DNA of 34,190 nucleotides from positions 1 through 34,190 of the IMG/VR virus record IMGVR_UViG_3300011337_000727, one strand, 5' to 3'. Numbering within the stretch: the stretch's first letter is position 1; the number at the start of each line of letters is the position of its first letter. The DNA comes from a virus. Lineage: Duplodnaviria > Caudoviricetes. Made by a program: the position numbers and the translations under genes. Shown in pieces: positions 3,265 to 17,931 of this stretch. The notes under the pieces are model-generated. The model saw nothing but the letters and a program-made list of their open reading frames with translations. It was not told where the DNA came from and ran no database searches.

Positions 3265-3881
3265 AATTGATTTCCATTCCGGTTGTTTCGTTTATTCTTC
3301 TGTTGGCAATGGGAGTTTATTTGATTTATCGGGAGCGGAAATTTGGACAAGTGGTTTCCGAAAATGGGAACCTGATGAAATTACTTTCGACCAAAAATCA
3401 GGAAGTGATAAAGGGCGATTCGGGCGAAACCTTAATTCGCCAGGCAAAAGTGGAAGTCAGCCGCCAGACATTCAATCAGATTATGGGCGAAAAGATTGAT
3501 CAGCTGGAAACCCGGCTGAATACTCGATTCAACCGGATTGAAACCATTACACAAGTTTCCGTGAAAACAATTACGAAACAGAAAATGCACGGCAAAGACA
3601 CGGTGATGGTTTGGCACTTTGATTCCACCGCTGCGCCAAAGATGGACACGGTTCTGGTGTTTAGGTTTACGGACAAATTCGGAACCAGCCAAATCACGGT
3701 GAAGGGAAAAGAGGCAATCAAAATTGACAGTACTTTAAATTCGTTTTACATTATAGAAGATAGAGAAAAATGGAAGTTGAAACACCTATTCAGAAGAAGA
3801 GAAAAAAGATTCAATCTAGTGATCATGAATCCGAATTCACGATTGGACACGCTTCGGAATCTCAGCGTTATGCCCAGGTAA
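3261..3881 (+). CDS. Membrane-anchored lysis-cluster protein (spanin-like)
   Basis: N-terminal TM anchor, coiled coil and beta-rich C-terminus; sits upstream of the endolysin. Confidence 0.5.
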   Translation: MKLISIPVVSFILLLAMGVYLIYRERKFGQVVSENGNLMKLLSTKNQEVIKGDSGETLIRQAKVEVSRQTFNQIMGEKIDQLETRLNTRFNRIETITQVSVKTITKQKMHGKDTVMVWHFDSTAAPKMDTVLVFRFTDKFGTSQITVKGKEAIKIDSTLNSFYIIEDREKWKLKHLFRRREKRFNLVIMNPNSRLDTLRNLSVMPR

Positions 3882-14861: not shown

Positions 14862-15144
14862 TATTCTTGACCACCAGCTGGCAGAAATTAAAAAAATAAT
14901 AACGAGCAAAAGCCAAGACTATGCCGGCGAGGATGATGTCCTGAAAGCATTTCGGCAAGTGGGAGAATTACTTGAAATGGACATGGAATCGGTTTGCCAT
15001 GTTTTCATTGGGACAAAAATTGTTCGTTTGCGGAACTTATCTGAAGCTGGAAGGATTCCAAATCACGAATCCATCCGGGATACCATCCGTGATCTTCAGT
15101 GTTACTCCCTGATTTTGGAGCACATTTACTTGAGCGAAACTTAA
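14833..15144 (+). CDS. Nucleotide-modification-associated domain protein (DUF1599-like, all-alpha)
   Basis: KSQDYAG..K..RL..ESIRDTIRDLQCYSLI pattern. Confidence 0.65.
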   Translation: MNMTSQNRNDILDHQLAEIKKIITSKSQDYAGEDDVLKAFRQVGELLEMDMESVCHVFIGTKIVRLRNLSEAGRIPNHESIRDTIRDLQCYSLILEHIYLSET

Positions 15145-15149
15145 AGAGG

Positions 15150-15395
15150 ATGGGAGCGCCAAAAAATAACCAATATGGATTGAAATATCAGTCCAAAATG
15201 GTCAATTCGGTGACCTTTAAAATGCCGAAGCCGGAATGGGAGTTATTTTTATCCTGGGCAGGGCAAAGGTGCCGGTCAGAATTAATCAGAGAAACAATTT
15301 TAAACAGAATCGAAAATGAAAAAACACTGGAGTCCGGAGGAAGACCGAAAATTGGTCAACATTTACCCACGGATGCACAATATGGAGGTTTCTGA
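15150..15395 (+). CDS. Small DNA-binding protein (ribbon-helix-helix-like)
   Basis: MGAPKNNQYG N-terminus; VTFKMP..RSELIRETI. Confidence 0.5.
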   Translation: MGAPKNNQYGLKYQSKMVNSVTFKMPKPEWELFLSWAGQRCRSELIRETILNRIENEKTLESGGRPKIGQHLPTDAQYGGF

Positions 15396-15543
15396 AGCGA
15401 TGCAGCGATCATATGGAAGCGTTGTCGGTAGGGCGCAAGTTCTTGGCCTAAAAAAGGATCCAGCATATATCCGAAGGGATAACGTAAAAGCATTGGCGAT
15501 GTTGGGGATTAGAAAGTACAAATGTTTAAATTATTACAAATGA
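15316..15543 (+). CDS. Myb/HTH-like small protein whose C-terminus is read from attC-like site 0 (interrupted gene)
   Basis: WSPEEDRKL..YP..RS..SV..RA..LGLKK; residues after RRDN lie within the hairpin's left arm and loop. Confidence 0.65.
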   Translation: MKKHWSPEEDRKLVNIYPRMHNMEVSEAMQRSYGSVVGRAQVLGLKKDPAYIRRDNVKALAMLGIRKYKCLNYYK

Positions 15544-15608
15544 AAGTAGAAAGCACAAAAGATGAAATTAAGAACGAAAGCCCCAATATTGCCAATGCAG
15601 TGTTAGCG
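15477..15608 (-). repeat. attC-like site 0
   Basis: GGATAAC (15477-83); arm GCATTGGCGATGTTGGGG (15490-507) pairs with CCCCAATATTGCCAATGC (15581-98) with 2 G:T; GTTAGCG (15602-08). Confidence 0.8.
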
Positions 15609-15623
15609 GATGTGCTGGGTTAA
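15540..15623 (+). CDS. 27-aa leader peptide starting in the attC0 loop
   Basis: MKVESTKDEIKNESPNIANAVLADVLG; ATGA overlap with the upstream stop; start resembles MTIESTN of attC2. Confidence 0.45.
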   Translation: MKVESTKDEIKNESPNIANAVLADVLG

Positions 15624-15657
15624 ATAACGGATTTTTAAACTTTAAAAAATAAATAAA

Positions 15658-15930
15658 ATGTCAAAACAAAAAGAAGTAAAACTCGATGAGATACAAAATG
15701 AAGAAATGTATTGTTTAGTTGCACCTGACGGCTCTGCTCAAATCACAACATTAGCACCTGATTTCGCAATGTGTATCGGAATGGCTAAATTGATGGCAAG
15801 TAAAGGATTAGGTCAACCTGTTGCAGAAATGTTTAGTCAAGGGTATTCAATTCTGCCTGTAAAAGTTACAATGGTTCAAAACGGCACTGCCGAAGATGGG
15901 TTTCAGTCGGCTCGTAAGCATATCCGCTAA
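15658..15930 (+). CDS. Cassette A hypothetical protein
   Basis: 90 aa; stop TAA lies inside CGCTAAC. Confidence 0.8.
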   Translation: MSKQKEVKLDEIQNEEMYCLVAPDGSAQITTLAPDFAMCIGMAKLMASKGLGQPVAEMFSQGYSILPVKVTMVQNGTAEDGFQSARKHIR

Positions 15931-16055
15931 CGTTATCTCGCTATGAGTAGTGGCGGATTTAGAACTACTCACTTTAAATTTAGAAACAATGTCAAAAAAG
16001 AAAACAAAACTTCAAGAACCGATTAACCCGCCATTACTTATAGCGAGTGTTAGCG
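15925..16055 (-). repeat. attC-like site 1
   Basis: CGCTAAC; 20-bp stem 15937-56 / 16028-47 (2 G:T); GTTAGCG 16049-55. Confidence 0.85.
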
Positions 16056-16189
16056 GTAGTGCTACTACATTAAGCGGAACATCGAATAATGGAACAAACT
16101 CAAGTGTAACAACTAAAATAAGTGGTTTGTTTAGTGATAATTTTAGAACGTATTATGTTGACGAGAGTGGCAAAAAGCATTACCGCTAA
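15989..16189 (+). CDS. Cassette B small protein, N-terminus encoded by attC1
   Basis: ATG in the loop; MSKKKTKLQEPINPPLLIASVSGS..; stop in the next CGCTAAC. Confidence 0.6.
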   Translation: MSKKKTKLQEPINPPLLIASVSGSATTLSGTSNNGTNSSVTTKISGLFSDNFRTYYVDESGKKHYR

Positions 16190-16314
16190 CGGTTTTCCGC
16201 TATGAGTAGTGGCGGATTTAGAACTACTCACTTTAAAATTAGCACAAATGACAATAGAAAGCACAAATGTTCAATTACCACTTCAACCGCCATTACTTAT
16301 AGCGGATGTTAGCG
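16184..16314 (-). repeat. attC-like site 2
   Basis: Near copy of site 1 with compensatory changes (CTCGC/GCGAG vs TCCGC/GCGGA); stem 16196-215 / 16287-306. Confidence 0.85.
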
Positions 16315-16652
16315 GTAGTACTTCTTGGGATGAATGGTTATCTGAAACGGAAACCAAACTCAAAGAATTAGGTTACAGGAGATATGTTCAAAATCATAAA
16401 AACGAGGATTTTTGTTATTGTAAAACTTTTAAAAATGGCGAAAATAAAATTTACCAAATAGGCATATTGTTTTATGATTTTAGGAAGTATGCAGACCGTG
16501 ACCCATACGCAAACAGAATAGGAATAATGTATGAGTGTATGGTTTTAGGTGAAGATAGAATTGATATGCGTGTTAGTAAAAACATTGATTTGGTAGAGTT
16601 TGAAAATATGGCACAAACTTTCTACGGAGCGATGTCGCAGTATTACCGCTAA
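16248..16652 (+). CDS. Cassette C hypothetical protein, N-terminus encoded by attC2
   Basis: ATG in the loop; MTIESTNVQLPLQPPLLIADVSGS..; stop in the next CGCTAAC. Confidence 0.75.
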   Translation: MTIESTNVQLPLQPPLLIADVSGSTSWDEWLSETETKLKELGYRRYVQNHKNEDFCYCKTFKNGENKIYQIGILFYDFRKYADRDPYANRIGIMYECMVLGEDRIDMRVSKNIDLVEFENMAQTFYGAMSQYYR

Positions 16653-16739
16653 CGTTTTCGGGCTTGGCGAAGGTTGGCTTGTAGGATGCTCAAATTTAGC
16701 AGAATGTTTCTGCCCACTTTTGCCAAACCCGTGTTATGC
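16647..16739 (-). repeat. attC-like site 3
   Basis: CGCTAAC; stem 16659-78 / 16712-31 (16 Watson-Crick pairs, 2 G:T, 2 mismatches); GTTATGC 16733-39. Confidence 0.8.
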
Positions 16740-16777
16740 GTTCGGGCGGTATTTGAAAACGAATTAAATTTTAAAAT

Positions 16778-17308
16778 ATGAATAGTAAAATAATCAGCTT
16801 CGCAATTGAAGCACACAACAACACTAACCATTTATACGATGGTAAACCTTATTCGGTGCATTTGTCAATGGTAGCAATGATTGCACAAAAGTATATTGAC
16901 TGCATACCTGAACAAGCACAAAGAGATGTATTATCCGCTTGTTGGTTGCACGATACTATTGAGGATTGCAGAATGACTTACAACGACATTAAGCAAGTAG
17001 CTGGCGAAACGGTTGCAAACATTGTTTATGCCGTAACCAATGAAAAGGGTAAGAACAGAAAAGAAAGAGCAAATGATGCTTATTATGATGGTATCAGAAA
17101 AACAATGTGGGCAAAGTATGTAAAGCTATGTGATAGACTTGCAAACGTGCAATACAGCTACGATAATACGTCAAGAATGTATGGTGTTTATCAAAAAGAG
17201 AATGATGCTTTTTTGCAAGCATTGTTTCCCAATGAAAGCGAAATGCACCACTACCGAGATATTGTAAATGATTTGAAAATGTTGTTGGGTTACACGGTCG
17301 TAGCCTGA
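16778..17308 (+). CDS. Cassette D: HD-domain hydrolase, RelA/SpoT hydrolase (SAH/Mesh1)-like
   Basis: FAIEAH..GKPYSVHL..V, ACWLHDTIEDC, VYAVT, VKLCDRLAN motifs. Confidence 0.85.
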   Translation: MNSKIISFAIEAHNNTNHLYDGKPYSVHLSMVAMIAQKYIDCIPEQAQRDVLSACWLHDTIEDCRMTYNDIKQVAGETVANIVYAVTNEKGKNRKERANDAYYDGIRKTMWAKYVKLCDRLANVQYSYDNTSRMYGVYQKENDAFLQALFPNESEMHHYRDIVNDLKMLLGYTVVA

Positions 17309-17385
17309 CGCATAACTATCCTATTGCCGCAATATTGCTTGATATATCAAAGATTAGATAAGGTGTATAGTTGAACGAGTGAAAC

Positions 17386-17412
17386 GGGGGAGGCGATTGC
17401 TTCCCTCTTTTT
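17386..17412 (+). terminator. Intrinsic terminator after the cassette array
   Basis: GGGGAGGC-GATT-GCTTCCCT followed by CTTTTT. Confidence 0.6.
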
Positions 17413-17417
17413 ACATT

Positions 17418-17681
17418 ATGAAACAATCAAAAGAAAAATACGCAGACCTTTTACTCTCCGACAAATGGATGGAGAAGAGGATTAAAGTATTCAAGCGGGA
17501 TGGGTACAAGTGTCAGCATTGTGGGTTTATTCATTCTGTCTGCCTGTGGTTCATTCTGCCATTCGTGATTGTTCCGTTTCTGATTTTGCTTTATATGGAA
17601 AATAAAACAGTACAAATCCGGAGGCAGATGTTACTTTTTGCGATTCTTGGATTCATATTTGGATTCATTATATTCAAATGA
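17418..17681 (+). pseudogene. HNH-endonuclease N-terminal remnant fused to a two-TM fragment
   Basis: YADLLLSDKWMEKRIKVFKRDGYKCQHCG then an abrupt hydrophobic sequence; no HNH catalytic core. Confidence 0.55.
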
Positions 17682-17884
17682 TAAAGTTTATTCAACCGAC
17701 CGGAAAGGATTTAAAAGTATTGATTCCAATGGTGGTTTCCATACTGGATGAATCTGGAATGTGCCGTGAACAATGGACAGTTGAAAAAGCAATGGTTTTT
17801 CTGCATTCATCAAACAACTGGGAAAACCTAGTGGCTTGTTTGATTTCAAACCAAAAAGCTATATTTGAGCGATTAAAAATGTGA
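17678..17884 (+). CDS. Hypothetical protein
   Basis: 68 aa; ATGA overlap with the upstream ORF; ends before a terminator. Confidence 0.65.
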   Translation: MIKFIQPTGKDLKVLIPMVVSILDESGMCREQWTVEKAMVFLHSSNNWENLVACLISNQKAIFERLKM

Positions 17885-17901
17885 TTTGGTTAAAGTTGAC
17901 G

Positions 17902-17931
17902 AAAAAACGGCGGTCATTGATCGCCGTTTTT
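17902..17931 (+). terminator. Intrinsic (bidirectional-type) terminator
   Basis: AAAAAACGGCGGTC-ATT-GATCGCCGTTTTT. Confidence 0.8.

Follow-up and report, generated by a model that had tools for sequence, protein, structure and literature searches.

Organisation of the locus

The DNA analysed here, called the window throughout, is one virus record of 34,190 bases with a completeness rating of 65%. Its long open reading frames (ORFs) lie on the + strand, with terminase, capsid-like, tape-measure-like and primase genes among them. DNA matches in cultured phages came from Flavobacterium phages in 13 of 14 records, and the relatives of the recombinases linked to arrays of this kind are nearly all from Bacteroidota; from these two observations we infer a host within the Bacteroidota.

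Four units, all on the + strand and each composed of a hairpin with a gene behind it, occupy positions 15483 to 17315. Unit A (15483-15930) contains hairpin A and a 90-aa gene (15658-15930), and its ends form an 11-bp inverted repeat. The gene is unassigned to any family, its 33 protein relatives all being without a name. A 27-codon ORF (15540-15623) has its start codon in the hairpin A loop and its stop just past the GTTA; elsewhere this leader ORF is fused in frame to genes of other phages that, named by eye, are methyltransferase-like or phosphoesterase-like. Unit B (15931-16189) holds hairpin B and a 66-aa ORF (15989-16189) whose ATG lies in the hairpin loop and whose frame crosses the right arm. 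In unit C (16190-16652) the start codon of a 134-aa ORF (16248-16652) is likewise inside the loop of hairpin C. Unit D (16653-17315) consists of hairpin D and a 176-aa HD-domain phosphohydrolase gene at 16778-17308 (Pfam HD_4; phrog_990). These unit coordinates, given in the initial annotation, were reproduced on recomputation, and its observation that stop codons lie within CGCTAAC holds for ORFs A-C, which end at the TAA of that motif. Searches for close cassette homologues of genes A and B found none, gene B having only a 55% homologue without a hairpin; the boundaries of units A and B therefore rest on the rule for the family.

To the left of the array a backbone HNH endonuclease gene (15316-15543, + strand) is truncated after its first 52 codons, with a frame that continues into hairpin A. 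The gene is intact (205 aa) in the relatives L014 and L015, and homology to them stops at 15470. The last unit is followed by a terminal non-hairpin element (17313-17347), by a stem with a T run (17386-17413, + strand) that resembles a terminator by consensus match only, and by the start of a second HNH-like gene (17418-17525, + strand), which is still foreign; homology to the backbone returns at 17526. The window thus has approximately 2 kb where two backbone relatives hold approximately 750-820 bp of their own. Since the stretch that replaced the backbone DNA includes the terminal element, the terminator-like stem and the HNH-like gene start as well as the units, the array probably came as a block. 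The two backbone relatives were rejected as empty sites because of the DNA of their own that they carry there, and a pattern scan for closer relatives of the window found none. Further downstream, a stem of 13 bp flanked on both sides by T or A runs (17903-17931) may be a two-way terminator. Matches to sigma-70 promoters are at chance level (17 versus 16.9), and a Bacteroidota promoter pattern has no match at the terminal site. As the genes point towards that site, a Pc-like promoter located there could not read them.

Contigs from public sequencing runs span 15000-15968 and 16709-17900 with zero differences from the window, one of the runs being possibly the source of the record, and this indicates that both junctions of the array are real. 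Joints that skip a unit do not occur in the contigs of four public runs, which can reveal presence only. The samples used for the comparisons below were gathered through the window genes and one recombinase alignment, and the relatives are not independent.

The four hairpins

The hairpins share a common plan, TAAC, 5 nt, stem ... stem, 1 nt, GTTA. In three of them the left spacer measures 5 nt and the right one 1 nt; in hairpin A they measure 6 and 3 nt. The window has only four such sites, and 12 triplet-shuffled versions of it have none. Hairpin A (15480-15605, + strand), with an 18-bp stem between TAAC and GTTA, opens the array, which bears out the earlier description of an array that begins with a full hairpin. 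Hairpins B (15928-16052) and C (16187-16311) are also on the + strand, and hairpin D (16650-16736, + strand) is 87 nt long with arms that match a site of Pelobium manganitolerans. An Rfam search returned nothing relevant. The stems are continuous, having no single extrahelical bases, and the + strand carries four surplus bases in its AAC arm.

All stem wobbles had been described in the initial annotation as G:T on the + strand. Eight G:T pairs of the inner stems are indeed on that strand, as is the single G:T in each extended outer arm of A-C, but the stem of hairpin D also contains a C:A pair and hairpin B has an A:C pair near its loop. The per-strand folding check proposed there favours the + strand in three of the four sites: core free energies (+/-, kcal/mol) are -15.0/-10.4 for A, -15.3/-14.9 for B, -18.1/-15.7 for C and -15.0/-15.5 for D, so that site D folds about equally on both strands and slightly better on the minus. 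The premise that the recombinogenic attC strand is the better-folding one does not stand as a universal rule. In the available text of Loot 2017 (PMC5371416), bottom strands are more stable in mobile integrons, while the chromosomal average is the opposite, owing to Vibrio, and across 1,744 chromosomal attC sites the top strands are on average the better-folding ones. Given these data and the equality at site D, folding energy was rejected as a sufficient argument for polarity.

The two ends of a unit are complementary to each other for 11 bp beyond the core; units A-C have 10 Watson-Crick pairs plus a single G:T there, and unit D has 7 plus 1. A circularised unit would for this reason fold better than the site in the array; in computation this is so for the circle of any unit, and the + strand is the better in all four.

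Linkage of hairpins and genes

Gene C was found at nine loci. Four viral records have it with the whole upstream hairpin and with new neighbours on both sides, three records of one context (L009-L011) retain the right arm of hairpin C only, and the two remaining loci are 42% relatives outside any cassette. The hairpin downstream of gene C in the window accompanies it at none of the nine, although L006 has one of the same arm family, and the close homologues change neighbours at TAAC. At the four loci with the HD gene, homology ends at the TAAC corresponding to 17316 in three, all with different downstream DNA. Upstream of this gene, two loci (L001, L002) have a hairpin whose arms are similar and whose loop is longer, one has a collapsed site and one has no hairpin; in L003 (2950-2965) the upstream site has shrunk to a few bases around GTTA and the closing TAAC is retained. 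A comparison of homologues had been proposed with the original reading of the array, and it came out in that reading's favour, the upstream hairpin being retained and the downstream hairpin occurring with no homologue.

The same picture emerged from a wider set of 252 distinct viral sites, from which four loci (duplicates or chance matches), scores under 13 and near-symmetric spacers had been dropped. Among 150 hairpin pairs at least 80% alike, the downstream flank alone is common in 27 (6 groups), the upstream flank alone in none and neither flank in 123. Pairs of like gene bodies retain the upstream hairpin in 13 of 13 cases, drawn from three gene families. The Y before AAC pairs with the GTTR of its own body (7 C-G, 0 C-A) as against that of the same hairpin (2 C-G, 4 C-A), and this covariation sets the unit boundary to the right of Y, within AAC, where the initial annotation had placed it on the + strand. 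The exact cut, between AA and C, is adopted by analogy with IntI (Nivina 2016, PMC5027507, as far as the accessible text describes it).

Translation starts inside the hairpin in 71 of 157 units. In 160 well-bounded phage units, the gene is sense in 151, antisense in three and ambiguous in six. The one clear antisense case is a 149-aa ORF in the L068 unit that adjoins the terminal site and lies approximately 720 to 98 bp ahead of the recombinase match; the hairpin of this unit is 80% identical over the loop to a Flavobacterium site, and it is read as a host-type cassette in a phage array.

Hairpins can also be found in front of genes other than those of the window. Hairpin A precedes other genes at 11 loci, with homology ending at GTTAG in 10 of them, and hairpin D matches the hairpin of another gene (L024) up to GTTA. 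Together with the right arm left alone in L009-L011, this indicates that hairpin and gene are not permanently bound. The second breakpoint, at GTTA, is either a trace of cassette birth or a sign of occasional use of the other strand. Across 20 hand-picked sites, compensatory change is seen in 19 of 25 stem pairs; the stems covary strongly, whilst in primary sequence only AAC/GTT and a few further bases are constant.

The terminal element and the linked recombinases

The bare CATAAC reported at the end of the array does lack a hairpin, the last TAAC being without a fold (z 0.48), but it proves to be the start of a conserved element of 35 bp (17313-17347, + strand), which is a likely attI-like docking site. 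A fifth hairpin at 17313-17376 was rejected, folding being no better than in shuffled sequences. From the last CATAAC onward the element is conserved in 12 of the 13 viral loci that match an 18-base exact pattern, the thirteenth being a chance match inside a gene, and it stands behind different gene ends in eight distinct contexts. None of the 12 records that share it has a recombinase (PF00589). The likeness to the terminal sites of recombinase-bearing relatives is partial: the window has the majority base at 6 of 10 positions after TAAC in 28 recombinase-adjacent terminal sites.

In L027-L039 the terminal element (approximately 65-135 bp from TAAC) is present at different intergenic places of one recombinase-free related backbone. 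A 10-bp remnant of a cassette end precedes it, cassettes accompany it in some cases and not in others, and it apparently moves as one block. L031 and L033 share a 40-bp left flank and the terminal element, without and with one hairpin-plus-gene unit, respectively. They were rejected as an empty and filled pair and are suggestive only, for this left flank is a repeat with two copies in L033, and the places are not orthologous. Tandem TACC-N4-GGTA palindromes (L031:3323; L033:3227 and 4733) occur once or twice between genes, and a pair of them stands twice directly before a cassette site; they are possibly operators.

No tyrosine recombinase was detected in the 65% complete window record (no PF00589 match at E<=1). 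Such an enzyme is present in 3 of 38 records that share parts of the array, and in L006, where it has 267 aa, and L001 it is on the same strand, just behind the array. A survey of the best 80 of 202 viral recombinase loci gave 221 hairpins upstream of the recombinase in 415 kb versus 15 downstream in 538 kb, and the long spacer comes first in 214 of the 221. At 30 of the 59 hairpin-bearing loci among these 80, the last unit ends at a non-hairpin TAAC at most 110 bp from the recombinase match. A 960-bp hairpin-first unit, 99.9% identical in the two, lies beside the terminal site in L106 and at an internal position in L107, whilst L092 and L094 agree fully from the terminal TAAC onward and diverge just before it. 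Both observations fit entry of units at the terminal end, a direction that they suggest rather than prove.

Other arrangements were also encountered. Upstream of the recombinase in L090 and L091, two stretches of approximately 450-470 bp are doubled in one array; the copies are 88-92% alike, one of them adjoins the terminal site, and they are duplicated cassettes. L083 (5088-4068 bp before the recombinase), L082, L089 and L110 have a second array, in opposite orientation or away from the recombinase. In the cultured Flavobacterium phage mumin9-1 (MN812224, locus L208), each of three hairpins of the window family (490-613, 2619-2734 and 3513-3630) either precedes an annotated DNA methyltransferase gene or sits at its start.

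By profile and by structure the linked recombinases are most like XerA, all scores being below curated cut-offs. The integron integrase model TIGR02249 gives 124-163 bits in two stretches on the enzymes of the relatives, against a cut-off of 265, and the IntI insertion is absent (query 175-212 versus 177-262 of the 2A3V chain, approximately 48 residues shorter). In a quick unrooted tree of 58 selected rows, phage-type and host-type enzymes are separate.

Mirrored arrays in Bacteroidota genomes

The best 80 of 578 confirmed recombinase loci in genomes include 29 with hairpins downstream of a longer recombinase (approximately 345 aa), amounting to 69 sites with spacers reversed; the other 51 have no downstream hairpins, and in many of these the contig ends there. 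The bacterial order is recombinase, attI-like site ending in GTT, gene and hairpin, that is, canonical cassettes. The attI-like site was found at 16 of 64 genome loci, and its reverse complement resembles the terminal sites of the phages. Genes run opposite to the long-spacer-first strand at 60 of 69 bacterial sites versus 43 of 247 phage sites. Compared with the nearest bacterial arrays, in which the sites are mirrored, the window ORFs are thus antisense to canonical cassettes, as had been proposed.

Of the 44 arm positions of hairpin D, 43 agree with the non-coding strand of the Pelobium manganitolerans site and no more than 20 with its coding strand; for hairpins A-C the figures are 27-36 and 19-21. 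Across 250 phage hairpins there are 530 G:T and 121 C:A pairs. The arms formed by the ends of the units contain 82 G:T and 2 C:A in phages, whereas on the gene strand of the bacterial arrays they contain 24 C:A and 1 G:T. In these alignments the wobble bias follows the site and not the gene. Matches inspected as candidates for cassette genes shared by phage and bacterial arrays were rejected, being hairpins or methyltransferase genes of ambiguous context.

Relation to known systems

In integron theory, the choice of attC strand keeps cassette genes facing away from attI, and the newest cassette is the best expressed. The arrays described here share with classical integrons the hairpins with an AAC/GTT core, the paired stem, the boundary within AAC and the G:T bias on one strand. 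Their relatives add a non-hairpin docking site beside a tyrosine recombinase (the 30 of 59 loci given above) and units that shuffle, whilst the window alone offers an attI-like site of partial likeness and no enzyme in the record. On the minus strand the order in phages becomes recombinase, docking site and array, as in classical integrons. The differences are equally marked. Phage genes are antisense to the polarity of the site (the 151 of 160 units) and often start inside the hairpin; the spacers are of 5 and 1 nt, single extrahelical bases are absent and the surplus is on the AAC arm; the ends of a unit are complementary for 10-11 bp beyond the core; and the recombinase has no IntI insertion, which is described as essential for integron function (PMC8138268, accessible text). 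The definition of a cassette as a gene followed by attC holds in the Bacteroidota genome arrays and fails in the phage units. Among profiles and structures, the linked enzyme is closest to XerC, XerD and XerA, but its scores fall under their curated cut-offs and its sites are long hairpins in arrays, unlike dif. In its working the array thus resembles a row of integron cassettes whose genes are inverted, yet it departs from classical integrons in three defining tests.

Clusters of at least two attC-like sites with no nearby integrase are known as CALINs, and the window, with four hairpins and no PF00589 match in a 65% complete record, is such a cluster. Qi et al. 2023 (PMC9892861) describe CALINs in phages, including the Polaribacter phage P12002L, and ascribe the 'divergent' attC directions of that phage to mosaicism; the available text of the paper contains no systematic inversion, docking site or cognate recombinase. 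One of its sites, P12002L_attC1, resembles the window hairpin family by eye, although it was not called by the detector used here. The published 'bottom strand' of this site is the gene-sense strand, and it lies ahead of a methyltransferase gene. A further point of comparison is the inverted integron-integrase group of Treponema (Cury 2016, PMC4889954, main text), which resembles the Bacteroidota genome arrays in having recombinase and cassettes on one strand. That group possesses a true IntI whose gene is inverted, whilst in phages of the window type it is the cassette genes that are inverted; the word Bacteroidetes has 0 occurrences in the main text of that paper. A literature search covering mainly openly accessible papers and the text of bioRxiv preprints found no description of a system such as that reported here.

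A model for the array and its alternatives

In the model that we favour, each unit begins with the C of a TAAC and closes with the AA of the TAAC that follows, and its gene lies on the strand opposite to that used in Bacteroidota genome arrays. A Xer-like tyrosine recombinase would excise and insert units by cutting the folded + (coding) strand within AAC. The excised unit would be a circle in which the hairpin is lengthened by the complementary ends of the unit itself, and the point of entry for new units would be the terminal site, at 17316. The sense orientation may be retained because phage transcription, which runs in one direction and which the initial annotation takes to be early, reads the genes. 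The array would have arrived as a block and may now be frozen, or be served in trans by an enzyme of host or phage; it is a small, probably orphaned example of its kind. Comparison of related loci shows the unit boundaries, the linkage of hairpin and gene, the mirror relation to host arrays and the presence of the terminal site beside the recombinase in relatives. The main proposal of the initial annotation, a hairpin with the gene that follows it, a boundary in AAC, docking at 17316 and antisense ORFs, is upheld by the homologues and by the opposite gene strand in the Bacteroidota genome arrays; its polarity is supported by these comparisons and not by the folding rule. We hold the reversed polarity, hairpin then gene, to be highly probable on the basis of these alignments. 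That the folded + strand is the recombination substrate seems likely, the indirect signs being wobble bias and covariation of the stems, and the model as a whole, with four hairpin-first units, a + strand cut in AAC by a Xer-like recombinase and entry at 17316, is judged likely too, with good confidence.

The same polarity could also arise if a Xer-like enzyme recombined double-stranded or cruciform DNA, the G:T bias then reflecting mRNA folding or stability. The XerA-like character of the recombinases, their scores below the integron-integrase cut-off and their lack of the insertion agree with this, as does the bulge, which is on the wrong arm for IntI: extrahelical bases recognized by IntI are on the arm opposite the recombined AAC (PMC5027507, accessible text). 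The P12002L site assigned to the family by eye is moreover the only one of six that IntI1 did not recombine (PMC9892861, available text). Folding of mRNA cannot, however, explain a bias that in bacteria belongs to the non-coding strand, and strong covariation of stems without conservation of primary sequence, where only AAC/GTT plus a few bases are constant, speaks against this reading. This explanation is therefore regarded as unlikely.

A second alternative abandons a single polarity. Both strands would be used, crossovers at AAC moving units and crossovers between G and TT moving hairpins nearly as often. The equal folding of site D on both strands, the homology of hairpins A and D that stops at GTTA before other genes, and the 123 of 150 hairpin pairs with neither flank in common can all be accommodated in this way. 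A pool of hairpins common to cassette births would explain the 123 equally well, however, and frequent exchange between G and TT predicts pairs that share the upstream flank alone, of which there were 0 in 150; with upstream hairpins retained in 13 of 13 body pairs, we consider use of both strands improbable.

Canonical polarity on the + strand, in which a gene would move with its downstream hairpin and the crossover would be between G and TT, is very improbable: stop codons in CGCTAAC and complementary unit ends are compatible with it, and the IntI extra-base rule, applied to the surplus on the AAC arm, would mark the minus strand (PMC5027507, accessible text), but no homologue retains the downstream hairpin, this polarity would leave genes B and C without start codons, and a half site first with a hairpin last is predicted where the opposite order is observed.

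Implications for phages and their hosts

The favoured model, with hairpin-first units on the + strand, presents one family of sites in two orientations, canonical in bacteria and inverted in phages, together with an enzyme that lacks the insertion regarded as indispensable to the recombination of hairpins. A more speculative extension, to which we give only tentative credence, is that Bacteroidota and their phages possess an integron-like system of their own with insertion-free recombinases, and that phage cassettes are built back to front, a ready-made hairpin being joined to a new gene between G and TT. The hairpin would bring ribosome entry and the first codons, and the stop codon of the gene would supply the TAA of the closing site. 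If so, the second breakpoint would be a mark left by the birth of a cassette, and phage cassettes in host arrays, like host cassettes in phage arrays, would be silent owing to their opposite gene orientation. Should a strand assay agree, the repertoire of tyrosine recombinases would be wider, a route of gene exchange between Bacteroidota and their phages would come into view, and the making of cassettes would acquire a testable handle.
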